NCBI GenBank assembly: GCA_963726245.1
Contig: CAVSBT010000017.1
Coordinates: 128,001-192,000 of the forward strand
Origin: an uncultured Chloroflexia bacterium
Lineage (GTDB): Bacteria > Chloroflexota > Dehalococcoidia > DSTF01 > JALHUB01
DNA: 64,000 bases
Direction of reading: 5' to 3'
The notes below the pieces were generated by a model. The model did not search any database, was not told the origin of the DNA, and was given only the letters and a program-made list of their open reading frames with translations. The position numbers and the translations under genes are program-made. Within the stretch, counting starts at the first letter, position 1. Each line of letters opens with the position of its first letter. Positions 23,439 to 38,570 of this stretch are shown piece by piece.

Positions 23439-23671
23439 AGGGCCGCCTCTTCCATCTCTTGCAGGAGGCGGAACACGGACTGCGCCTCCTCGGCATCGAT
23501 GACGCTGATGGCGAAGCCGGCGTGGACTATCACGTACTCGCCCACCTGGGCCTCCGGCACCAGGTTCAGGTTCGCCTCGCGGACCACGCCGCCGAAGCGC
23601 ACCCGGGCCTGGCGCAGGCCCTGGGCGTCCTCTTCAATCGACAGGATTTCGCCGGGGATACCAAGGCACAT
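23435..23671 (-). CDS. hypC: hydrogenase maturation chaperone HypC
   Basis: MCLGIPG...[13 protein letters not shown]. Confidence 0.97.
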
Positions 23672-23672
23672 C

Positions 23673-25937
<2,265 letters not shown>

Positions 25938-25938
25938 G

Positions 25939-26313
25939 CTAGCGCTCCAGCTCCAGGTGGCGGATCAGGCAGCCCGTATCGCCCTCGACCTGCACGCGGG
26001 CGGAGCCGCAGTGGGGGCAGCGGGCCAGCAAGTAATGGGCATCCAGCTCATGGTCGTCCGAAGGCTCGAACGAAGAATGGCGCCGGCAGTCGGCGCAGAA
26101 CAGCGAGGCGGCGGCCCTCACGGCGCGGACGGTGGCGTCCTTTCCCAGGCCTTCCCCGAGGGACTCCTTCACCCAGAAGGCGATGTTGTCGACGCTGCCG
26201 TGCACCAGGCCGCCGACCTCGATGTCGACGGCGACGATGCGCCGGGCGCCCTCGCGCTCCGCCTCGGCCTTCAGCCGCTTGGCGATCTCCTGGGCCAGGC
26301 TGAACTCATGCAT
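25939..26313 (-). CDS. hypA: hydrogenase nickel metallochaperone HypA
   Basis: N-terminal MHE, CADC and CPHC. Confidence 0.93.
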   Translation of the reverse strand: MHEFSLAQEIAKRLKAEAEREGARRIVAVDIEVGGLVHGSVDNIAFWVKESLGEGLGKDATVRAVRAAASLFCADCRRHSSFEPSDDHELDAHYLLARCPHCGSARVQVEGDTGCLIRHLELER

Positions 26314-26439
26314 GGCGGTGCTCCAGCAGCAGTCCTCCCACCCGGCGACGAGGGCAGGCAGCTACACCTCAAGCTGGGGCAAGAGCCCTAACGCAGTAGT
26401 ATAAGCGGTTCTTGGGCAATAAGCGCCCAGAGCCTCGGG

Positions 26440-28155
26440 CTATCCGCCGCCGGGCGCAGGAGTGGTGCGGGCGCGGACCTCGGCAGCGGCGCCGCTCCAG
26501 GGGGCAGAGGGTGGCCTCTTTGTCCCGCCGGCCCTTGAGCTCGGCGGAGGCCTTCTCCAGGGTGCGCGGGCTGACGGTGATGCGCAGGGGCATGCCCAGG
26601 AGGTCGGCGTCGTTGAACTTGACGCCGGGCGACTCCTCGCGGTCGTCGTAGAGCACGTCGACGCCGGCGGCCTGGAGGTCGGCGTAGAGGCGGTCGGCGG
26701 CCTCGGCGACGCCGGGGCGGTCGGTGTTCAGGGACACCAGGTGGGCGTCGAAGGGGGCCAGCGAGGCGGGCCAGATGATGCCCTTCTCGTCGTGGTTGGC
26801 CTCGACGACGGCGGCCAGCAGGCGCTCCAGCCCGATGCCGTAGCAGCCCATGACGGCGGGGCGGGCTACGCCCTGGCTGTCCAGGAAGGTGGCGCCGAGC
26901 TTCTCGCTGTAGACGGTGCCCAGCTTGAAGACGTGGCCCATCTCGATGCCCCGGTCGCGGCGCAGCTTCGAGCCGCAGGAGGGGCAGGGGTCGCCGTCGC
27001 GGGCCAGGGCGATGTCCGTCACCAGGTCGGCCGACCAGTCGCGGCCGTAGTTGACGTTGCGCAGGTGGGCGTCCGGCTTGTTGGCGCCGGCCACCAGGTT
27101 GGGCGACCCCGGCGCCGAGTCGTCGGCCACGATGCGCACGTTCTTGAGGCCCATCGGCGACGCGTAGCCGGCCACCAGGCCCGCCGCCTCCAGCTCGCGG
27201 TCGTCCATGAGGCGCAGCTCGTCGACGCCCAGGGCGTCGCGCAGCTTGGTCTCGTTGACGTCCAGGTCGCCGCGGATGGCCACGAAGACCGGCTGGCCGC
27301 CGGCGGAGTAGAAGACGGCCTTGCAGCGTCTTCCAGGGCGGGATGCTCAGGAAGTTGGCCAGGTCTTCGATGGTCTTGATGCCCGGCGTGGAGACTTCCT
27401 CGACCGGCAGGGGCTCTTCGGGCTCGGGCTGGCGCTTGCGGATCTCCGCCTTCTCCGTGTTGGCGGCGTAGCCGCAGCTCTCGCAGAGCACCACCTCGTC
27501 CTCGCCGACGTCGCAGAGGTACATGAACTCCTGGTTGTCGCGGCCGCCGATGGCCCCCGAGTCGGCCTGGACGGCGACGGTCGGCACGCCGCAGCGGTCG
27601 AAGATGTTCTTGTAGGCCTGGAGCATCTTCTGGTAGCTCACGTCCAGGCCCTCCCAGTCGACGTCGAAGCTGTAGAGGTCCTTCATCGTGAACTCGCGCA
27701 GGCGGATGAGGCCGCCGCGGGGGCGCGGCTCGTCGCGGAACTTGGTCTGGATCTGGTAGATCATGACGGGCAGGTCGCGGTAGCTCTGGACGTGGCGCTT
27801 GAAGAGCTCCACGGTGATCTCCTCGTGGGTGGGGCCGAGCGCCAGGTAGCGGTCGCGGCGGTCCTTGAGGACGAACAGGTTGTCGCCGAAGGCCTCGTCG
27901 CCTGCCGGAGGCCTCCCAGATCTCGATGGGCTGGAGGGCGGGCATCATGAGCTCCTGGCCGCCGGCGGCGTCCATCTCCTCGCGGATGATCTGCTCGATC
28001 TTGCGCAGGACGCGCCAGCCCAGCGGCAGGTAGCTGTAGATGCCGGCCGCCAACTGCTGGACGAGGCCGGCCCGCAGGAGGAGGTGGTGGTTGGCGGTGT
28101 CGGCCTCCGCCGGGGCCTGGCGCAGCGTCTTGCCGAAGAGGCTTGAGAGGCGCAT
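26440..28155 (-). CDS. proS: proline--tRNA ligase with editing insertion (three apparent indels)
   Basis: [76 protein letters not shown]. Confidence 0.96.
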
Positions 28156-28344: not shown

Positions 28345-28372
28345 TTGCGAACAGACAGAGTGGGTGTAAAAT
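28345..28372 (+). promoter_or_regulatory. putative sigma70 promoter giving a near-leaderless transcript of the cyclase array
   Basis: TTGCGA-N16-TAAAAT ending 9 nt before the ATG at 28382; no SD sequence in between. Confidence 0.5.
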
Positions 28373-28381
28373 AGCGCCGTC

Positions 28382-29725
28382 ATGGAGCCACGCATCCAGT
28401 ACGCCAGGACCACTGACGGGGTGAGCATCGCCTTCTGGACGCTGGGGCAAGGGCCACCCGTCGTGCAGATGGGGCTTCCGTTCAGCCATATCCAGTTGGA
28501 GTGGCAGGACCCCGGGTGGCGCCGCTGGTACGAGCGGCTGGCGGAGAGGCGGAAGCTGGTCCGCTACGACGGGAGGGGGTCGGGCCTTTCGGACCGCAAC
28601 GTGGCCGACTACTCCCTGGACGCCCATATGCGGGACCTCCAGGCGGTGGTGGAACGCCTGGGCGTGCAGAGATTCGCTCTAGTCAGCCCTCACATGGCAT
28701 GCGTGGTCGCCGTCGCCTGCGCGGCCCGCTACCCGGAGGCCGTATCGCACCTCGTGCTGTGGTGCGCCTGGGGACTAGGCCCCCGAGGCCGCGCACAGGT
28801 ATTCGGGACGCTGAGAGAGGGGGACTGGGAGCTATACACGGAGGCATTGGCGCATGCCGGGTTGGGATGGTCGGCGGGTGAGGAAGCGCACCGCATAGCT
28901 GCCTTCATGCGGGAATGCGTGACGGCAGAAGCGGCACGCGCCATCTTCAGCGCGCTTGCGCGGTTTGATGTCGCGGCCGTCCTTTCGCAAGTGACGTCGC
29001 CCACCTTGATACTCCAGCGTCGCCAGGTCGCGGCGCTTCCCGGCGTGGAGATCGCCAAGGATCTTGCCTCCGGAATTCCGGACGCCCGCCTGGCCCTCCT
29101 GGAGGGGGCGTCGCTCTTGCCGTGGGTAGGCGACATGGAGGCGGTGCTGGCGGCCATCGACGAGTTCCTGGGGGATACCGAGCCGGCCCCAGCGGGAGCC
29201 GAACAGCACGCGGCAGGCGCTTTTCGCACCGTCCTGTTCACCGACGTGGAGGGGTCTACAAGCCTAACCCAGCGGCTCGGCGACGCGAAGGCGCGGGAGC
29301 TGTTGCGTGAGCATGGGCGCATCGTACGCGAGGCGCTGCGGGCCCACGGCGGCTTCGAGGTGAAGACCATGGGCGACGGCTTCATGGCCTGCTTCACCTC
29401 CGCGACGCGGGCGCTGGAGTGCGCCATCGCCATGCAGCGGGCGTTTGCCGAGCACAACGAGCCGGCGGCGGAGCCGATAAGGGTGCGTGTGGGGCTGAAC
29501 GCCGGCGAGCCGATTGAGGAGGAGAAAGACCTGTTCGGGACGGCGGTGATCCTGGCGGCGCGCATTGCGGCCCGGGCAGAGGGCGGTGAGATCCTGGCCT
29601 CGGACGTGGTGCGGCAGCTCGTGGCGGGCAAGGGCTTCCTCTTCTCCGATCGCGGCGATGTAGCCCTGCGCGGCTTCGAGGACCCGGTGCGGCTGTACGA
29701 GGTGCGCTGGGGGGAGGAGGGGTGA
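28382..29725 (+). CDS. alpha/beta-hydrolase-fold (triad-less) + class III adenylate cyclase, copy 1
   Basis: IQYARTTDGVSIAF, VRYDGRGSGLSDR; elbow FALVSPHMAC; cyclase LFTDVEGST, EVKTMGDGFM, RVGLNAGE, DLFGTAVILAARI, LRGFEDPVRLYEV. Confidence 0.93.
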   Translation: MEPRIQYARTTDGVSIAFWTLGQGPPVVQMGLPFSHIQLEWQDPGWRRWYERLAERRKLVRYDGRGSGLSDRNVADYSLDAHMRDLQAVVERLGVQRFALVSPHMACVVAVACAARYPEAVSHLVLWCAWGLGPRGRAQVFGTLREGDWELYTEALAHAGLGWSAGEEAHRIAAFMRECVTAEAARAIFSALARFDVAAVLSQVTSPTLILQRRQVAALPGVEIAKDLASGIPDARLALLEGASLLPWVGDMEAVLAAIDEFLGDTEPAPAGAEQHAAGAFRTVLFTDVEGSTSLTQRLGDAKARELLREHGRIVREALRAHGGFEVKTMGDGFMACFTSATRALECAIAMQRAFAEHNEPAAEPIRVRVGLNAGEPIEEEKDLFGTAVILAARIAARAEGGEILASDVVRQLVAGKGFLFSDRGDVALRGFEDPVRLYEVRWGEEG

Positions 29726-31114
29726 TGGAACAGCACATACGCTTCTGCACCAGCTCGGATGGGACGCGCATAGCCTACGCCACCGTGGGCCAGGGGTGGC
29801 CGGTGATCAGCATCCGCCCGTGGTTCACCCATTTAGAGTTCGAGTGGGAGAACTCGATGTGGCGGTCTTCCATCGAACGCCTGTCCGCACGTCATCTCCT
29901 GATTCGCCACGACGCGCGCGGCATGGGGCTATCCGACCACCAGGTGAGCGACTATTCCCCCGAAGCCCAGGTGCGCGACCTGGAAGCGGTGGTTGACGCC
30001 CTGGGCCTTGAACGCTTTGCCCTATACGGCATCTCCCAGGGCGGGGCAACGTGCATCACTTACGCCGTGCGCTACCCCGAGCGCGTTAGCCACCTGATAC
30101 TCCAGGGCTCGTTCGCCCGCATGGGGTGGTTTATTGACACAGAGGAGGGGCAGCAACGCTTCCAGACTGCCCTGAGCCTGATGCCGCAAGGATGGGGTTC
30201 GGATCTGCCTGCGTACCGGCAGTTCTTCACCAGCCTGTTCATGCCGGACGCGGACGCGGAGGCGATACGGCAGTTCAATGAGATGCAACGGATCTCCGCT
30301 TCGCCCGAGAATGCCGCTGCCGTGCTCTCAGCAATACGAGACACTGATGTGAGTGAGCTCCTATCGCAGGTGAGAGCGCCCACACTCGTGGTCCACTGTC
30401 GGGGGGACGCCATCGTGCCGTTTGAGGCGGGCCGGGAGCTCGCAGCCGGTATTTCGGGTGCCCGTTTCCTCCCTCTGGACAGCAAGAATCACGCTCTGCA
30501 GCCGCACGAGTCGGCAGCAGAGGCCTTAGGAAGAGCGGTGAACGAGTTCCTGGGCGAGGGCGAAGAGGTCGCCGCGGCGAGAGCCGAGTCGGCGGCGGCA
30601 GGCGCCTTCCGCACCGTCCTGTTCACGGACGTGGAGGGGTCGACGGCGCTGACCCAGCGGCTGGGGGACGCCAAGGCGCGCGAGGTGCTGCGAAACCACG
30701 AGCGCATCGTGCGGGAGGCGCTGCGGGCCCACGGCGGCTCCGAGGTGAAGACGCATGGGCGACGGCTTCATGGCCTCGCTTCTCCTCCGCGACGCGGGCG
30801 CTGGAGTGCGCCATCGCCATGCAGCGGGCCTTCGCCGAGCACAACGAGGCGGCGGAGCGAGCCCATGAGGGTGCGCATCGGGCTGAACGCCGGCGAGCCG
30901 ATAGCGGAGGACGAGGACCTGTTCGGCACGGCGGTGAACCTGGCGGCGCGCATCGCGGCCCGGGCAGAGGGTGGGGAGATCCTGGCCTCGGACGTGGTGA
31001 GGCAACTAGTGGCGGGCAAGGGCTTCCTGTTCTCCGACCGCGGCGATGTGGCGCTGCGGGGCTTCGAGGACCCGGTGCGGCTATACGAGCGTGCGGTGGC
31101 AGGAGGAGGGCTGA
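29725..31114 (+). CDS. alpha/beta hydrolase (intact triad) + class III adenylate cyclase, copy 2 (apparent indels in cyclase domain)
   Basis: GISQGG, HCRGD, SKNH; LFTDVEGST, DLFGTAVNLAARI; TGATG overlaps at both ends. Confidence 0.9.
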
Positions 31115-32490
31115 TGGAACAGCAGATCCGTTTCTGTACCACATCCGACGGCGTTCGCATCGCCTACGCCACCGTGGGGCAGGGGCCACCCCTGGTCCGC
31201 GTCCTCGGCTGGTTCACCCACCTGGAGTTTGAATGGGAGAATCCTATCTGGCGGGGTTTCATCGATGGTCTATCCCGCCGTCTTTTCCTGGTTCGCTACG
31301 ATGGCCGGGGCATGGGCCTGTCCGATCGTGACGTAAAGGACTATTCCCTGGAGACCCATGTGCGTGACCTAGAAGCAGTGGTTGACGCCGTTGGTTTTGA
31401 GAAGGTCGCCATGTTAGGCTTCTCTCAGGGCGGGCCGGCAGCCATTGCTTACGCGGTACGCCATCCTGCGCGCGTCAGCCACCTCATACTCTATGGCTCG
31501 TTCGCTCGCCAGCGGGCCCTCGACACGGAGGAAGGCCGTCAACAGGCTGTGGCCATGGGGACGCTAATCCGCCAGGGGTGGGGCAGTGACTCGCCAGCGT
31601 ACCGCCAGTTCTTCACGGGCGTGTTCATGCCCGATGCCGACAGCGACACTATTCGAGGCTTCAACGAACTCCAGCGGGTCTCCGCCTCCGCCGACGATGT
31701 TGTGGCGCTTGCGGCTGCCGACCTGCGGATAGACGTCCGGGAACTCCTCCCGCAGGTAGCGCCACCCACATTGGTAATTCACCGTCGTGGTGATACAGCT
31801 ACCCCATTTGAGCTGGGTCGAGAGCTTGCCGCCGGCATCCCCGGGGCCCGCTTCCTCCCCTTGGACGGCAGGAACCACGCCTTCTTCGTGCCCAACGATC
31901 CTGTGAAGGAGACCATCTACAAGGCTATCGAAGAGTTCGTTGGCGTGGGTGGCGAGGCTGAGGCGGTAGCTGCTCCCTGGGGTCTCTGCACTATCCTCTT
32001 CACGGACGTGGAGGGGTCGACGGCGCTGACCGAACGGCTGGGGGACGCGAAGGCGCGGGAGGTGCTGCGGAAGCACGAGCGCATCGTGCGGGAGGCGCTG
32101 CAGGCCCACGGCGGCGCGGAGGTGAAGGCGATGGGGGACGGGTTCATGGCCTCGTTCTCCTCGGCGACGCGGGCGCTGGAGTGCGCCATCGCCATGCAGC
32201 GGGCCTTCGCCGCAGCACAACGAGTCGGCCGCGACGAGCCCATAAGCGTGCGCATCGGGCTCAACGCCGGCGAGCCGATAGCGGAGGACGAGGACCTGTT
32301 CGGGACGGCGGTGAACCTGGCGGCTCGCATCGCGGCGAGGCGGAGGGCGGCGAGATACTGGCCTCGGACGTCGTGCGGCAACTGGTGGCGGGCAAGGGGT
32401 TCCTGTTCTCGGACCGCGGCGATGTGGTGCTGCGCGGGCTTCGAGGACCCGGTGCGGCTGTACGAGGTGCGCTGGGGGGAGGAGGGGTGA
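31114..32490 (+). CDS. alpha/beta hydrolase (intact triad) + class III adenylate cyclase, copy 3 (apparent indels near 3' end)
   Basis: MEQQIRFCTTSDGVRIAY, GFSQGG, HRRGD, GRNH; LFTDVEGST, EVKAMGDGFM, DLFGTAVNLAARI. Confidence 0.9.
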   Translation: MEQQIRFCTTSDGVRIAYATVGQGPPLVRVLGWFTHLEFEWENPIWRGFIDGLSRRLFLVRYDGRGMGLSDRDVKDYSLETHVRDLEAVVDAVGFEKVAMLGFSQGGPAAIAYAVRHPARVSHLILYGSFARQRALDTEEGRQQAVAMGTLIRQGWGSDSPAYRQFFTGVFMPDADSDTIRGFNELQRVSASADDVVALAAADLRIDVRELLPQVAPPTLVIHRRGDTATPFELGRELAAGIPGARFLPLDGRNHAFFVPNDPVKETIYKAIEEFVGVGGEAEAVAAPWGLCTILFTDVEGSTALTERLGDAKAREVLRKHERIVREALQAHGGAEVKAMGDGFMASFSSATRALECAIAMQRAFAAAQRVGRDEPISVRIGLNAGEPIAEDEDLFGTAVNLAARIAARRRAARYWPRTSCGNWWRARGSCSRTAAMWCCAGFEDPVRLYEVRWGEEG

Positions 32491-33838
32491 TGGAGCCGCG
32501 CATCCAGTACGCCAAGACCGCCGACGGCGTGAGCATCGCCTTCTGGACGCTGGGGCAAGGCGTGCCCTTCGTGCAATGCCAAATCTTCCCTGGAGCCATA
32601 TCCAACTGGAGTGGCAGAATCCCGGGTGGCGCCGCTGGTACGAGCGGCTGGCGGAGAAGAGGAAGCTGGTCCGCTACGATGGGAGGGGGACGGGCCTTTC
32701 GGACCGCAACGTGGCCGACTACTCCGTCGATGCCCATATGCTGGACCTGCAGGCGGTGGTGGAACGCCTGGGCGTGCAGAGATTCGTTCTGTGTCGGCTT
32801 TGTCAACGCAGCGCCGGTCGCCATCGCCTACGCGGCCCGCCACCCGGAGGCCGTATCGCAGCTTGTGCTGTGGTGCCCCTGGTGGTGCGGCACGCGCAGC
32901 CCGTCGAGCGCACATTGCGCTGAGCAATGGCAGGGGGACTGGGAGCTATTCACGGAGGCAGTGGCGCATGCCGCGTTCGGGTGGTCGGCGGGTGAGGAAG
33001 CGCACCGCTTCGCTGCCTACATGCGGGAATGCGCCACGCCAGAGGCGGCACGCGCCATCTTTCGCGCGCTTGCAGAGTTTGATGTCGCGGCCGTGCTTCC
33101 GCAAGTGAGGTCGCCTACCTTGATACTGCAGCGTCGCCAGGCCACGGGGATTCCCGCTCTGGAGATCGCGAAGGCTCTTGCCTCCGGAATACCGGATGCC
33201 CGCCTCGCCCTCCTGGAGGGGGCGTCGCTCGCGCCGTGGGTGGGCGACATGGAGGCGGTGCTGGCGGCCATCGACGAGTTCCTGGGCGAGTGGCGAGCCC
33301 GCCCCAGCCGGAGCCGAGGCGCCCGCGGCGGGCGGTCTCTGCACCATCCTCTTCACGGACGTGGAGGGGTCGACGGCGCTGACCAACGGCTGGGGGACGC
33401 GAAGGCGCGCGAGGTGCTGCGAAACCACGAGCGCATCGTGCGGGAGGCGCTGCGGGCCCACGGCGGCGCGGAGGTGAAGGCGATGGGGGACGGGTTCATG
33501 GCGTCGTTCTCCTCGGCGACGCGGGCGCTGGAGTGCGCCATCGCCATGCAGCGGGCCTTCGCCGAGCACAACGAGTGCGGCGCGAGCGAGCGCCGATAAG
33601 CGTCCGCATCGGGCTGAACGCGGGCGAGCCGATAGCGGAGGACGAGGACCTGTTCGGGACGGCGGTGAACATGGCGGCGCGCATTGCGGCGCAGGCAGAG
33701 GGCGGTGGGATCCTGGCCTCGGACGTGGTGCGGCAACTGGTGGCGGGCAAGGGCTTCCTGTTCGCGGACCGCGGCGATGTGGCGCTGCGGGGCTTCGAGG
33801 ACCCGGTGCGGCTGTACGAGGTGCGCTGGGAGGCGTAG
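32490..33838 (+). CDS. alpha/beta-hydrolase-fold (triad-less) + class III adenylate cyclase, copy 4 (several apparent indels)
   Basis: MEPRIQYAKTADGVSIAFW, close DNA similarity to the copy 1 N-domain; EVKAMGDGFM, DLFGTAVNMAARI, LYEVRWEA*. Confidence 0.88.
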
Positions 33839-33868: not shown

Positions 33869-35099
33869 TCACACCAGCAGGCTGATGGGGTTCTCCAGGA
33901 AGTTGCGAAGCTCGGCCAGGAAGCGGGCGCCCAGGGCGCCGTCGGTCACCCGGTGATCGGCGGAGAGCGCCACCTTCATCTGCTCCCTCACCACAATCTC
34001 CCCGTCGCGCACGGCGGGCACCTTCCGCACGACGCCCACGCCCAGGATGGCCGTCTGCGGCGGCGGGATGATGGCGATAAGGGTCTCCACTCCGTACATG
34101 CCCAGGTTGCTGACGGTGAACGTGGCGCCGCTGTACTCCTCGGCCTTGAGGACGCCCGAGCGCGCGCGCTCCGCCAGGTCCCGGCTGGCGCGGGCGATGT
34201 CGGCCAGGCTCTTCCGGCCGCAGTCGAGGATGGCGGGCGCGATCAGGCCTTCGTCCAGTGCAATAGCGACGCCGATGTTCAGGGCCTCCTGTGGCTGGAC
34301 CTGGCCGTCGACGAACCAGGAGTTGAAGATCGGGTGGCGTTGCAGAGCCTTGGCCACGGCCTTCACGATCACGTCGTTTACGCTGATGTGGACCTCGCCC
34401 TCGGCGGCGTCGTTGAGCTGCCGGCGCAGGCGCTCGGCCTCCGTCATGTCGATCTCCATGGTCAGGTAGTAGTGGGGGGCCTCGCGCTTGCTCTGTGTCA
34501 TGCGCCGCGCGATGGCCTGGCGCATGCGGCTCATGGCCGGCGGCTGCAGCCGGCGCTGCGAGGGGAGCAGCGGCCGGGGGAGCAGCGGCCGGGGGAGCAG
34601 CCTCTGGCGCCTTCGCCGCCGCCTCGATGTCGCCGCGCAGGATGCGGCCGTCGGGGCCGGTCCCCCGCACGCGCGACAGGTCGACTCCCAGCTCCTCGGC
34701 CAGACGCCGCGCCGCCGGCGAGGCGTGGACGCGGCCGGCCTCGGGTGGCGGCGCCTCGGTGGGTGGACGCTTGGGCGCCGCCGGAGGTGGTGCCGCGGCT
34801 GCGGGGGCTGCCGCGCCCTCGCCCGCCTGCCCGGCGGGCAAGTACCGGGAGATGTCGTCCTCGGGGGCGGCGATGACGGCGATGACCTGGCCCACGGGCA
34901 CGGTCGTCCCTTCGGCCAGCAGGATGCGGCGGAGCACGCCCGACTCGTACGCCTCGATCTCCACGTTCGCCTTGTCGGTCTCGATCTCAGCGATGATCTC
35001 GCCCCGCTCGACTGCGTCGCCCTCCTTCTTGAGCCAGCGCAGGATCGTGCCCTCCTGCATGTCGGCGCCCATCTGAGGCATCACCACTTCGCTGATCAT
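33869..35099 (-). CDS. pdhC: pyruvate dehydrogenase E2 dihydrolipoamide acetyltransferase (indel near 34540)
   Basis: Lipoyl EIETDKAN, E3-binding ASPAARRLAEELGVDL...GTGPDGRI, catalytic TFTVSNLG and LSADHRVTDG. Confidence 0.93.
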
Positions 35100-36084
35100 G
35101 GCGCCCTCCTACGATCATCCCCTTCACGGCCTGCGACGATCTGCTCTTCTGAGGGCAGGGCGGCCGTCTCCAGGCGCTTGTTGTAGGGCATGGGCACGTC
35201 GGCGCCGCAGACGCGGGCCACCGGCGCGTCCAGGTAGTCGAAGGCGCGCTCCTGGATGAGGCTGGAGATCTCGCCCGCGAAGCCGCCCGTGCGCCAGTCG
35301 TCCTCCACCACCACCGCGCGGCTCGTCTTCTTGACCGACTCGACGACGGTGTCGATGTCCAGCGGCCGCAGCGTGCGCAGGTCGATGACCTCCGCCTCCA
35401 GCCCCTTCTCGGCCAGCATGGCGGCGGCCCGCAGCGACTGGTGGACGCTCCCCGAGTAGCCGACGATGGTCACGTCGCGCCCCTGGCGGCGGACGTTGGC
35501 CTGCCCGAAGGGGACGTGGTAGTCGTCCTCCGGCACCTCGCCTTTCATGGCGTAGAGGGCGGTGTGCTCGATGAAGATGACGGGGTTTTCGTCGCGGAGG
35601 GCGGTCTTCAGGAGACCCTTGGCGTCGTAGGGGGTAGCGGGCACGACCACCTTGAGGCCGGGGACGTGGGCGTACCAGCCCTCCAGGCTGTGCGAGTGCT
35701 GGGCGCTGAGCTGGCTGCCGCCGCCGCTGGCCATGCGAACCACCAGCGGCACGTTTATCTGGCCGTCCCGACATGTAGTGGAGCTTGGAGGCGTTGTTGA
35801 TGATCTGGTCGATGGCGAGGAAGCTGAAGTTGATGGTCATCAGCTCCACGATGGGCCTCAGCCCGCCCATGGCCGCGCCGATGCCGGCGCCGACGACCAC
35901 CGACTCCGAGATGGGCGTATCGCGCACGCGCTCGGGCCCGAACTCCTCCAGCAGGCCCGCGGGTGACGCCGTAGGAGCCGCCGTAGGCGCCGATGTCCTC
36001 GCCCATGAGGATGACGCGCTCGTCGCTCAGCAGCGCCTCGCGGATGGTCTGGCGCAACGCTTCTCGAAAGGTGATCTCAGCCAT
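35096..36084 (-). CDS. pdhB: pyruvate dehydrogenase E1 beta subunit (indels)
   Basis: [53 protein letters not shown]. Confidence 0.93.
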
Positions 36085-36086
36085 CG

Positions 36087-37095
36087 CTAGGAGGAACTCC
36101 CCTCCTTGTAGACGTGCTCGTACAGCGCCTCCGGTGGCGGCTCCGGGCTCTCATCGGCGAAGCGCACGGCCTCGTTGACTGCTGACTCGACGCCGTCCTC
36201 CAGAGACCGGGCCTCCTTCTCCGTGATGAGCCCCTTCTCCTCCAGGTAGCGACGAAAGCGGAGGATGGGGTCCTGGGCCTTCCAGCGCTCCACCTCCGCC
36301 TTGTCCCGGTAGAACTCCGGGTCGGCCATCGAGTGGCCGCGGAAGCGGTAGGTGATCGCTTCCAGGAAGTAGGGGCCGTTGCCGCCGCGGGCTGACTCGA
36401 CGGCGCGGCGCGCGGCCTCGCGCACGGCCAGCACGTCCATGCCGTCCACGCGCTCGGCGGGGATGTTGTAGGCGCAGGCGCGCTTGTAGACCTCCGGCTC
36501 GGCGGAGACGCGGCGCACGTCGGTGCCCATGCCGTAGAGGTTGTTCTCGCAGAGGAAGACGACGGGCAGCTTCCAGACCGACGGCCAGGTTCAGCGACTC
36601 GTGGAACTCGCCCTGGTTGACGGCGCCGTCGCCGAGGATGTTGAGGACGATGCGGCCGTTCTTCAGGTGCGAGGACGCCAGGGCCAGGCCCACCGCCAGC
36701 GGCATGTGCCCGCCGACGATGGCGTAGCCGCCCATGAAGCCGCGCTTCACGTCGAAGAGGTGCATGGAGCCGCCGCGGCCGCCGCTCACGCCGGTCGCGC
36801 GCCGAACAGCTCGGCCATGATGCGGCCCGGCTCGACGCCGCGGGCCAGGGCGTGGCCGTGCTCCCGGTAGTGGCTGACGACGTAGTCGCTGGGGCCGAGG
36901 GCGGAGATGGCGCCCACCGCCACGGCCTCCTGGCCGATGTAGAGGTGCAGGAAGCCCCCGATCTTGCTGCGGGCGTACATCTCCGCCGCCTTCTCCTCGA
37001 AGCGGCGGATGAGCATCATCTGGCGCAGCAGGTCGATGAGTTGCCCTTTGTCGGGCTGCGTCCTTCGCGGTGCGATTACGTGCTCGAGTGGCCAT
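36087..37095 (-). CDS. pdhA: pyruvate dehydrogenase E1 alpha subunit (indels)
   Basis: [40 protein letters not shown]. Confidence 0.93.
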
Positions 37096-37105
37096 ATCCT
37101 CGGTC

Positions 37106-37165
37106 GTAGGGGCGTCCCTCCGTGGTCGCCCAGCCGTAGGGGCAGGGACGGGGCCCTGCCCCTAC
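37106..37165. repeat. GTAG-type REP doublet
   Basis: GTAGGGGCGTCCCTCCGTGGTCGCCC...GGGCAGGGACGGGGCCCTGCCCCTAC; the same two units recur at 46489-46553 and 60940-60998. Confidence 0.8.
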
Positions 37166-38570
37166 GGCTGGCGCTCCTCCCTCCAGAAGTGGATGGCCTG
37201 CCCGTAGGCGCCCAGGGCCGCCTCTTTGAAGGCCTCCGAGAGCGTAGGGTGGGCGTGGACCGTCAGGCCTACCTCGCGGGCCGTGGCCTCCATGAGGGTG
37301 CCGAGGGAGGCCTCGGCCAGGAGCTCCGTCACCTCCGGCCCGACCATGTGGCAGCCCAGCAGGTCGCCCCCGTCGGCATCGACCACCAGCTTGATCACGC
37401 CCTCGGTCTGGCCCAGGGCGGTCGCCTTGGCGTTAGCGCGGAAGGGGAAGCGGCCTATCTTGACCGAGCGGCCCTGCTCGCGGGCCTGGGCCTCCGTCAG
37501 GCCGATGCTGGCCACCTGGGGCTGGCAGAAGGTGGCGCGAGGCATCTTGACGTAATCCAGAGCCGGCGGGTCCTGCCCGGCGATGCCCTCGACGGCGGCG
37601 ACGCCTTGCGCCGACGCCACGTGAGCCAGCATCAGCTTGCCCGTGACGTCGCCGATGGCGTACACGCCGGGGACGCTGGTCTGCATCCGCTCGTCGATCT
37701 GGACGAAGCCCTTTTCCAGCGCGATGCCCAGCTTGTCGAGGCCCAGGGCCTCTGTGCTGGCGGCCATGCCGACGGCCATCAGCACGCGGCTCGGCGCGCA
37801 GCTCCTCCTCGCGGCCGCCGGCGCTGACCTGGACGGCGGCGCCGGCCCTTGCCCAACTGCACGCCCTGCACGCGGGCCGAGGTCAGGCTGCGGATGCCCT
37901 GCTGCTCGAAGGCGCGCGCCAGCCGCTGGCTGATCTCCTCGTCCTCGGTGGGCAGCAGGCGGTCCAGCATCTCGACAATGGTGACCTGGCTGCCGTAGGC
38001 GCGGTAGAGGTAGGCGAACTCCGCTCCCACGGGCCCGCCGCCGACGATGACGATGGACTCCGGCGCCTCTTTCAGTTCCAGGGCCTCGCGGCTGGTGATG
38101 ACAACCTTGCCGTCGATGTCGACGCCCGGGATGCTGCGGGCGTGGGCGCCGGTGGCGACGATGACGTGGTCGGCCTCGACCGACGCCGCCGGCGAGGCGA
38201 TCACCTCGACCTCGTGGGGGCTCTGGAGGCGGCCGGCGCCGCTGATCACGTCCACCTTGTTGCGCTTCAGGAGGAATTCCACCCCCTTCACTGTGCGCTC
38301 CACCACCTGCCGGCTGCGCTCGACGGCCTTGCTCAGGTCGAAGCGCAGGTCGCCGGTGGTGACGCCGAACTCGTCGGCGCGCTGGAAGAGGTGGATGACT
38401 TCGGCGTTCCAGAGGAGGGCCTTGCTGGGGACGCAGCCCCAGTTCAGGCAGAGCCCGCCGACGCGGTCCTTCTCGATGAGGGCCGTCTTCAGGCCCAGCT
38501 GGGCGGCGCGGATGGCGGCCACGTAGCCGCCGGGCCCCGCCCCGATGATAGCCAGGTCGTACTTGGCCAT
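37162..38570 (-). CDS. lpdA: dihydrolipoyl dehydrogenase (indels near 37800)
   Basis: [46 protein letters not shown]. Confidence 0.95.

Follow-up and report, generated by a model that had tools for sequence, protein, structure and literature searches.

Four tandem genes for hydrolase-cyclase fusions

We analysed a stretch of 64,000 nucleotides, here called the window, from an uncultured, high-GC Chloroflexia bacterium of the lineage Dehalococcoidia. The window covers positions 128001-192000 of contig C17 (CAVSBT010000017.1, 214 kb) in a metagenome-assembled genome (MAG; GCA_963726245.1) of 2.68 Mb and 46 contigs that is 82.8% complete and 6.3% contaminated. It carries an array of four head-to-tail genes on the plus strand, c1 to c4, each encoding an alpha/beta-hydrolase fold joined to a class III cyclase (tblastn and frameshift-aware alignment); the Pfam domains follow the order Abhydrolase_1, then Guanylate_cyc. 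An earlier, sequence-only reading of this locus had described four tandem fusion genes coupled through TGATG. The copies, their order and the junctions hold, but only c1 is an intact open reading frame (ORF). The features are listed below, with A and B denoting two types of N-terminal domain (N-domain) and triad the catalytic Ser, Asp and His of hydrolases.

28345..28372, plus strand: promoter-like site TTGCGA-16-TAAAAT, a consensus match only, 9 bases before the c1 start and inside the 226-base gap between proS and c1
28382..29725, plus strand: c1, intact ORF of 447 amino acids (aa); A-type N-domain without triad; cyclase with Ile at the Asn position
c1 parts: hydrolase fold, aa 1 to ~265; disordered linker, aa 266-275; class III cyclase, aa ~283-447
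29713..29727, plus strand: junction c1/c2, GGAGGAGG within the final c1 codons (…WGEEG and stop), then TGATG
29725..31114, plus strand: c2, B-type N-domain with GxSxG Ser, Asp and His; cyclase with six of six canonical catalytic residues
30754, 30779, ~30855 and 31090: the four frame breaks of c2, all in the cyclase domain
31102..31116, plus strand: junction c2/c3, GGAGGAGG, then TGATG
31114..32490, plus strand: c3, B-type N-domain with triad; canonical cyclase domain
32212, ~32234, ~32341 and 32436: the four frame breaks of c3
32478..32492, plus strand: junction c3/c4, GGAGGAGG, then TGATG
32490..33838, plus strand: c4, A-type N-domain without triad; canonical cyclase domain
~32574, 32792, 33291, ~33385 and ~33576: the five frame breaks of c4

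At all three junctions the stop codon and the next start overlap by one base within TGATG, and the GGAGGAGG ahead of each of them lies within the codons for the C-terminal …EEG of the preceding copy. The end of c4 differs (…VRWEA-TAG) and no copy comes after it. The array is flanked on its 5' side by the divergent proS (to 28155, minus strand) and on its 3' side by the convergent gene for 2-oxoacid dehydrogenase E2 (from 33869, minus strand). Our scan for promoter consensus sequences gave two sites where 0.4 were expected; no Shine-Dalgarno sequence was visible upstream of c1. Two terminator-like matches, at or below chance level, fall inside c2 and c3.

The top NCBIfam match was the same for all three queries, NF058673, 'bifunctional lipase/adenylate cyclase LipJ'. 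The scores, 232.5 bits (c1), 140.1 (c2 piece) and 188.4 (c3 piece), lie far below the 800-bit equivalog cut-off. The AlphaFold model of c1 had a predicted local distance difference test score of 92.5, and its cyclase domain superposed on those of Ma1120 and Rv1900c (the cyclase homology domain, CHD) with template-modelling scores (TMt) of 0.92-0.95 and root-mean-square deviations (rmsd) of 1.3-2.4. Both proteins were also found among the PDB sequence matches of the cyclase domain (Ma1120, 3e-34; Rv1900c CHD, 2.7e-25), together with entry 3MR7 (5.8e-21). The likeness of the single genes to mycobacterial LipJ (Rv1900c), which had been proposed from the sequence, is thus borne out by the top family match and by the close cyclase sequence and fold.

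Two distinct types of N-domain are joined to similar cyclase domains

The N-domains follow the order A, B, B, A, as first read from the sequence: the split that pairs c1 with c4 and c2 with c3 was supported by 159 informative sites, compared to 9 and 9 for the other two splits. The A-type domains (c1 and c4) are 78% identical in amino acids and 85.6% in nucleotides (nt), the B-type domains (c2 and c3) 62% and 66.2%, and between the types identity is 36-38% and ~52%, respectively. Against PF00561 (cut-off 25.8 bits), c1 scored 34.1, c2 72.7 and c3 70.8 bits. The c4 piece, 223 aa cut between frame breaks, had no match to PF00561, and c4 was placed in the hydrolase fold because of its 78% aa identity to c1. 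The best matches of the N-domains were ordinary esterases and enol-lactonase-like hydrolases. B-type domains resemble enol-lactonase and esterase families at scores below the cut-offs of those families, and the model of the c1 N-domain superposes on esterases with TMt 0.79-0.84.

For comparison we used a family set of 110 distinct full-length relatives (106 loci) and the six copies in the genome of the window (G000), namely c1-c4, C18:8-1345 and C27:35030-36373. The triad columns, whose assignment is somewhat uncertain in this divergent alignment, read S/D/H in c2 and c3, where the triad is complete, and H/V/L in c1 and V/A/L in c4, where none of the Ser-Asp-His residues is present. The triad is also wholly absent from C18 and C27. 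Of the 116 full-length members, 6 have all three residues and 90 lack every one; this sample was gathered with c1 as the query, and A-like members are over-represented in it. This loss in most copies argues that the hydrolase fold is used for signal input rather than for catalysis.

The cyclase domains matched PF00211 (cut-off 21.9 bits) with 71.1 bits in c1, 52.5 in c3 and 34.8 in the C-terminal piece of c4; the c2 piece, which spanned only the start of the domain, scored 16.2 bits, below the cut-off. At the six catalytic positions c2, c3 and c4 have D, D, K, D, N and R, and c1 has D, D, K, D, I and R. The Lys and Asp at the substrate positions form what we take to be the ATP-specifying pair of class III cyclases. 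Both metal-binding Asp residues and the transition-state Arg occur in all 116 members, the Lys in 115 of them and the substrate Asp in 110. Unlike these five nearly invariant positions, the transition-state Asn position was three-valued: N (47 members), I (46) and Q (21). The Q form accompanies a distinct 3' half of the cyclase domain (copies from C18, G009 and G012). In c1 the Ile is I390 (window ~29549-29551), and since the G017 ortholog of c1 also has I at this position, it is not an error. The Asn/Arg and K/D positions were mapped via the passages on Ma1120 in PMC4215837 and by alignment to the PDB matches. According to those passages, Ma1120 carries Ala at the transition-state position, is an active enzyme and loses activity when this residue is changed to Asn (A164N); I or Q there thus does not in itself imply loss of activity.

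The four cyclase domains share 85-93% of their amino acids and 85.5-93.8% of their nucleotides. The sequence-only reading had divided them into two types in the order X, X, Y, Y, and the strings on which it relied are present: GAFRTVLFTD in c1 and c2 versus GLCTILFTD in c3 and c4, EVKT with ATGGGCGACGGC versus EVKA with ATGGGGGACGGG, and RV versus SV. Nevertheless, what we found was a shallow mosaic ladder and not two classes. The c2 domain is nearer to c3 and c4 (91.5-91.6% nt; synonymous divergence, dS, 0.18-0.26) than to c1 (88.4% nt, dS 0.37). Informative sites that pair c1 with c2 and c3 with c4 number 16, those for the other splits 3 and 2, and c1 has 39 private sites; the 16 sites do not define two types, because a ladder (c1,(c2,(c3,c4))) gives the same unrooted split. 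EVKT and RV are the majority states in the family consensus (91 sequences) and are probably retained ancestral states in c1 and c2 rather than marks of a type. Neither the DNA nor the protein tree recovered a grouping of c1 with c2. With two discrete cyclase classes absent, the idea that the array holds all 2x2 combinations of sensor and cyclase was an over-reading. A patch said to be shared by c2 and c4, REVLRNHER, does occur in both, but it comes down to a single amino acid, N where c3 has K, and two to three nucleotide sites.

N-domains follow orthology whereas cyclase domains are homogenised within genomes

The two halves of these genes have different histories: N-domains follow orthology across genomes, and cyclase domains are homogenised among the paralogs of the same genome. 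In the N-domain tree, an A clade (support 100/100) contained c1, c4 and C18 together with copies from G005, G009, G012 and G017, and within it c4 grouped with the G009 and G012 copies (95/91). A B clade (100/100) had the form (c2,(G009-B,(L105,c3))). The four N-domains are thus old paralogs, because each has orthologs in other genomes. Cyclase-domain DNA rejected both the A clade (approximately unbiased (AU) test, p = 1.4e-8) and the B clade (p = 1.25e-48), which had been defined on the N-domain and not on the cyclase data that were tested. The discordance between trees of the two domains that the earlier reading had predicted is therefore real. Cyclase trees clustered by genome instead: the four G019 copies grouped together (100/99 for DNA, 95/88 for protein), as did, in both DNA and protein trees, the G009 A-type and B-type copies with C18 and the tandem pairs of L101, G021 and G007. 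The N-domains of these same copies grouped elsewhere, with their orthologs.

The same contrast is visible along the genes. Between c2 and c3, nucleotide identity rises from 66% in the N-domain to 91.6% in the cyclase domain, and between A-type and B-type copies from ~52% to 86-94%; the linker (alignment columns ~880-905) is where identity between A and B changes, being 50-60% before it and 85-97% after it. At synonymous sites, cyclase dS was lower between same-genome paralogs than between orthologs and N-domain dS showed the opposite, in at least three genomes (G000, G009 and G019). Within the array, dS for N-domain/cyclase domain was 1.52/0.26 (c2-c3), 1.63/0.14 (c3-c4) and 1.37/0.18 (c2-c4), and between orthologs it was 0.22/0.55 (c4 versus G009 L004) and 0.21/0.64 (c1 versus G017 L002). 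The G019 copy L005_149 gave 0.33/0.75 with its ortholog and 0.94/0.40 with a paralog of its own genome. The cyclase domain of C18 is itself a mosaic: over its 5' half it matches c3/c4 at 97% identity, but over its 3' half it matches G009 L004 at 96% and c1-c4 at 67-71%. The actual pattern is thus concerted evolution of the cyclase domain only, with the switch at the inter-domain linker. These data argue strongly that the homogenising process is gene conversion, aided by the tandem layout and the high nucleotide identity, and the dS pattern in particular supports the exchange between copies that had been suspected from the sequence. In the array, divergence between c1 and c4 is similar in both domains (dS 0.26 and 0.37). 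As c1 also lies at the between-genome baseline of cyclase similarity, recent exchange involved mainly c2, c3 and c4.

Frame breaks in c2-c4 are probably assembly errors

By frameshift-aware alignment, c1 alone is an open frame and c2, c3 and c4 carry 4, 4 and 5 breaks, 13 in total, of which eight are extra-base and five missing-base; the raw ORF listing of c2-c4 shows fused or truncated frames. The c3 breaks at 32212 and ~32234 cancel each other and leave the raw frame open, but AAAQRVGRD replaces EHNESAA. Further compensating shifts may be hidden in c4 near aa 129-150. The 13 breaks are probably errors of the assembly consensus, concentrated where the paralogs are most alike. We read them so because flanking genes are split as well, contigs from other samples are without the extra bases, no in-frame stops remain and dN/dS is low. 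The gene proS (26369-28155, minus strand) is split over three overlapping frames, hypF (23566-25903, minus strand) is also split across frames, and E1-alpha, E1-beta, E2 and lpdA of the 2-oxoacid dehydrogenase (pyruvate dehydrogenase, PDH) cluster (33869-38570, minus strand) are each split over two to three frames. Single-base indel errors are therefore common along the contig, and gene calls that rely on ORFs will break up many genes of this MAG. Short-read contigs from four other metagenomes have one base absent at both proS breaks, and they omit one base at 30754, 32210, 32436, 32793 and 33290/1, i.e. at five of the eight insertion-type breaks. When the breaks were bridged with X, no in-frame stop was left and the catalytic residues were intact; dN/dS in the cyclase domain was ~0.14-0.27.

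Ten of the 13 breaks fall within near-identical cyclase segments, and c1, the most divergent copy, has none. Such clustering would be the expected product of reads mis-mapped at polishing. Among the six insertion-type breaks displayed, five (30754, 30779, 31090, 32213 and 32435) consist of an extra C right after a G, a regularity that suggests a systematic error in the consensus rather than separate mutations. A caution follows for similar data: repeated domains in error-rich long contigs gather frame errors that resemble pseudogenes. In run X4, contig joints c1-c4 or c1-c3 were seen that are candidate copy-number variants or chimeric unitigs. Adjoining hypF is an ORF (25939-26313, minus strand) with a CxxC...CPHCG motif, presumably the hydrogenase maturation factor HypA.

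Distribution in the order and genomic context

The copy number of this cyclase signalling family is extremely variable. Among 41 genomes of the order, PF00211 matches ranged from 0 to 54 per genome, and the genome of the window had 15, a number inflated by split frames. G040 (3.1 Mb) had 54 and G025 (3.3 Mb) 32 cyclase-domain matches, and several genomes of the window's own family had 1. In the loci collected from relatives, such tandem arrays occurred 17 more times, as pairs in 13 cases, as triplets in 3 and as a quadruplet in 1. Stop and start overlapped in 10 of 22 junctions by a strict criterion, and several others showed an overlap one codon upstream. The A-then-B order was found again in G009 and G017. 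The earlier reading knew of no described operon of this kind and we found none in the literature searched, but the arrangement is not special to this locus. Adjacent copies carried the identical residue at the Asn position in 12 of 22 pairs, which fits homogenisation and argues against obligatory complementary pairing. We therefore rejected, as a rule, an arrangement in which a copy with Ile and a copy with Asn form complementary subunits.

In a comparison of flanking genes at 27 loci, only G007:C118 shared a neighbour with the array (lpdA), and its pair belongs to a C27-like clade, not to that of c1-c4. The orthologs of c4 in G009 and G012 are located at other genomic sites. The genome of the window contains three cyclic-nucleotide-monophosphate (cNMP)-binding domains, one of them directly after the sixth paralog, C27:35030-36373, in a gene (C27:36536-36796, 78 bits) ~160 bases downstream of it; the two genes may be a cyclase-effector pair. 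The fifth, A-type paralog, C18:8-1345, begins 7 bases from its contig start. C18:1919-13955 is ~90% identical to C29:15815-27910, so two related strains seem to have been binned together, and the C18 copy may come from the second of them.

Proposed function and alternative explanations

We consider it likely that the four old LipJ-like paralogs of the array are transcribed as a unit and coupled in translation, that their cyclase halves are converted while the N-terminal halves diverge, and that the frame breaks are assembly errors. The array would then be an operon of four signal-regulated adenylyl cyclases. Their output would be cyclic AMP (cAMP) from ATP, as judged from the Lys/Asp pair at the substrate positions, and by analogy with the class III fold they would be expected to act as dimers. 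The hydrolase fold would be the input module: A-type domains could be non-catalytic binders, and B-type domains possibly ligand-hydrolysing receptors or true esterases. Gene conversion would keep the cyclase halves alike as the input halves diverge. The cyclase domains might even stay near-identical so that paralogs with different inputs, whether pseudo-hydrolase binders or hydrolase receptors that retain the triad, can still dimerise with each other. Coupled arrays of this sort would then yield mixed dimers that detect combinations or coincidences of signals and supply a common cAMP pool, although we regard this extension as unlikely. If it were true, lineages with up to 54 cyclase domains per 3-Mb genome would be using the family as a main means of sensing, instead of large sets of two-component systems.

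Several observations weigh against parts of the reading that we favour. The cyclase domain is conserved between genomes too, up to 88-89% nt; because of this high baseline the excess similarity of c2-c4 over it is only 3-5 points, and c1 shows no excess at all. Within the array, AU tests do not separate the alternative groupings (p 0.33 for c1+c2, 0.26 for c3+c4, 0.17 for c2+c3+c4 and 0.19 for all four). A scan 3' of c4 found no terminator, and the bias of the family sample towards A-like members bears on the count of lost triads. With respect to the frame breaks, the comparison contigs come from other populations at an identity of at least 90% and possibly from paralogs, and the best sequencing run contained only 0.27 of the sampled words. 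All five deletion-type and three of the eight insertion-type breaks were not among the matches listed for the short-read contigs. Break density is also several-fold higher in the array (13 in ~4.1 kb of c2-c4) than in the flanks (at least 8 in ~14 kb, a rough reading of flanking ORFs and not a genome-wide count). This last point, together with the absence of any break from c1, is what would speak for c2-c4 being decaying pseudogenes with real frame breaks and c1 the only functional gene. Yet the essential neighbours are broken as well (proS in three frames, the PDH E1/E2/E3 genes), and short-read contigs of related populations lack five of the eight insertion-type breaks as well as both breaks in proS. 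The bridged frames are free of stops, with intact catalytic residues and dN/dS well under 1, and ten of the 13 breaks fall in the cyclase domains, the part repeated most, as mis-mapped polishing reads would leave them. We therefore find decay very improbable. Cyclase likeness might also have arisen without gene conversion, from purifying selection and GC-biased codon use alone; the conservation between genomes, a median end branch of 0.08 and the fact that c1 is no nearer to c2-c4 than to some foreign copies would agree with this. Selection of that kind does not account for cyclase dS that is lower in paralogs than in orthologs when the N-domain shows the opposite (G000, G009 and G019), for by-genome clusters that persist in the protein tree or for the mosaic C18 domain, and this explanation is the least credible of those considered here.

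The sequence-only reading went further and saw a recombination-shuffled receptor array holding every combination of two sensors with two cyclases, the homodimers and heterodimers of which integrate signals into cAMP. The discordance of the two domains is real, the split of c1 and c2 from c3 and c4 is the commonest pattern in the cyclase domain (16 sites versus 3 and 2), stop/start overlaps with an internal GGAGGAGG favour coupled translation, near-identical cyclases would have compatible dimer faces, and c1 differs from c2-c4 in having Ile in place of Asn. On the other hand, c1 and c2 do not form a group X: by identity and dS, c2 lies closer to c3/c4 than to c1, the trees do not unite c1 and c2, and the X states EVKT and RV are simply the family consensus. 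Decoupling is also seen in G019 and G009, where copies are dispersed, and hence is no design of this array; neighbours with the same Asn-position residue (12 of 22) show that complementary pairing is not the rule; and activity of Ma1120 with Ala, crippled by A164N in the passages of PMC4215837, means that Ile is no sign of a dead subunit in need of a partner. Such a receptor array is unlikely in our view. Still less probable is that copy number, order or chimerism is an artefact of repeat mis-assembly through the ~500-base near-identical cyclase segments in a contaminated bin. The MAG is 6.3% contaminated and two strains appear to be binned together (C18 versus C29, ~90%), contigs from other metagenomes join 28465 to 32576 and 29700 to 32488, and the order of the array is that of the assembly. 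However, each copy is anchored by its own ~850-base N-domain, at most 86% like any other, in a contig of 214 kb; the A-then-B order recurs in G009 and G017, and arrays of two to four genes with identical junction architecture occur at 17 loci in independent assemblies.

Comparison with known systems

The fusion of a hydrolase fold to a cyclase is already known, from LipJ (Rv1900c) and, by its name, from PDB entry 3MR7. For tandem overlapped arrays of such fusions, their expansion in Dehalococcoidia and domain-restricted homogenisation, we found no description in the literature searched (subscription papers and supplements lay outside it), and none was found there that joins Dehalococcoidia, adenylate cyclase and hydrolase. 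Diverging sensor halves linked to homogenised catalytic halves offer a natural experiment on the evolution of modular signalling proteins.

The closest solved cyclase domain is that of Ma1120 from Mycobacterium avium (PDB 4WP8 and others; 40-42% identity, TMt 0.93-0.95). Its solved chains are the cyclase domain alone (163-210 residues), without an alpha/beta-hydrolase part, and its Ala164 at the transition-state position, as given in passages of PMC4215837, parallels the I and Q variants here. Entry 3MR7 was deposited as 'Adenylate/guanylate cyclase/hydrolase, alpha/beta fold family', a name that points to the same fusion, and contains a chain of 189 residues only. On the hydrolase side, D14/KAI2 of plants and RsbQ of Bacillus subtilis are sequence-related structures to both N-domain types (E values 1e-4 to 1e-10). 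These receptors use a hydrolase fold as signal input and have kept the triad, as in the B-type copies. Unlike the copies here, they are separate proteins that act via partner proteins and are not fused to a cyclase. Gene conversion in a large and recently duplicating cyclase family is discussed in passages of PMC2914791 on the transmembrane cyclases of Trichomonas. That family differs in being eukaryotic and transmembrane, with many pseudogenes and no operon, and those passages do not claim domain-restricted homogenisation.

The nearest whole-protein relative is LipJ (Rv1900c) of M. tuberculosis, which has the same domain order, hydrolase then cyclase, and of which PDB 1YBT/1YBU represent the cyclase domain (TMt 0.94 and rmsd 1.3 to the c1 model). 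The B-type copies align with nearly all of the LipJ model, with residues 5-407 of c3 corresponding to model positions 10-404 of 449. The differences are that A-type copies here are without the hydrolase triad, and that the genes are multi-copy, tandem and stop/start-overlapped. The substrate-position pair of Rv1900c is said, in 2005 work by Sinha et al., to be Asn/Asp, unlike the Lys/Asp found here. The role of the hydrolase half in mycobacterial LipJ has stayed obscure, and in uncultured Dehalococcoidia the same architecture is greatly expanded. The array is a lineage-typical variant of the LipJ-like architecture; the family, the junction type and the decoupling of the two domains recur across the order.

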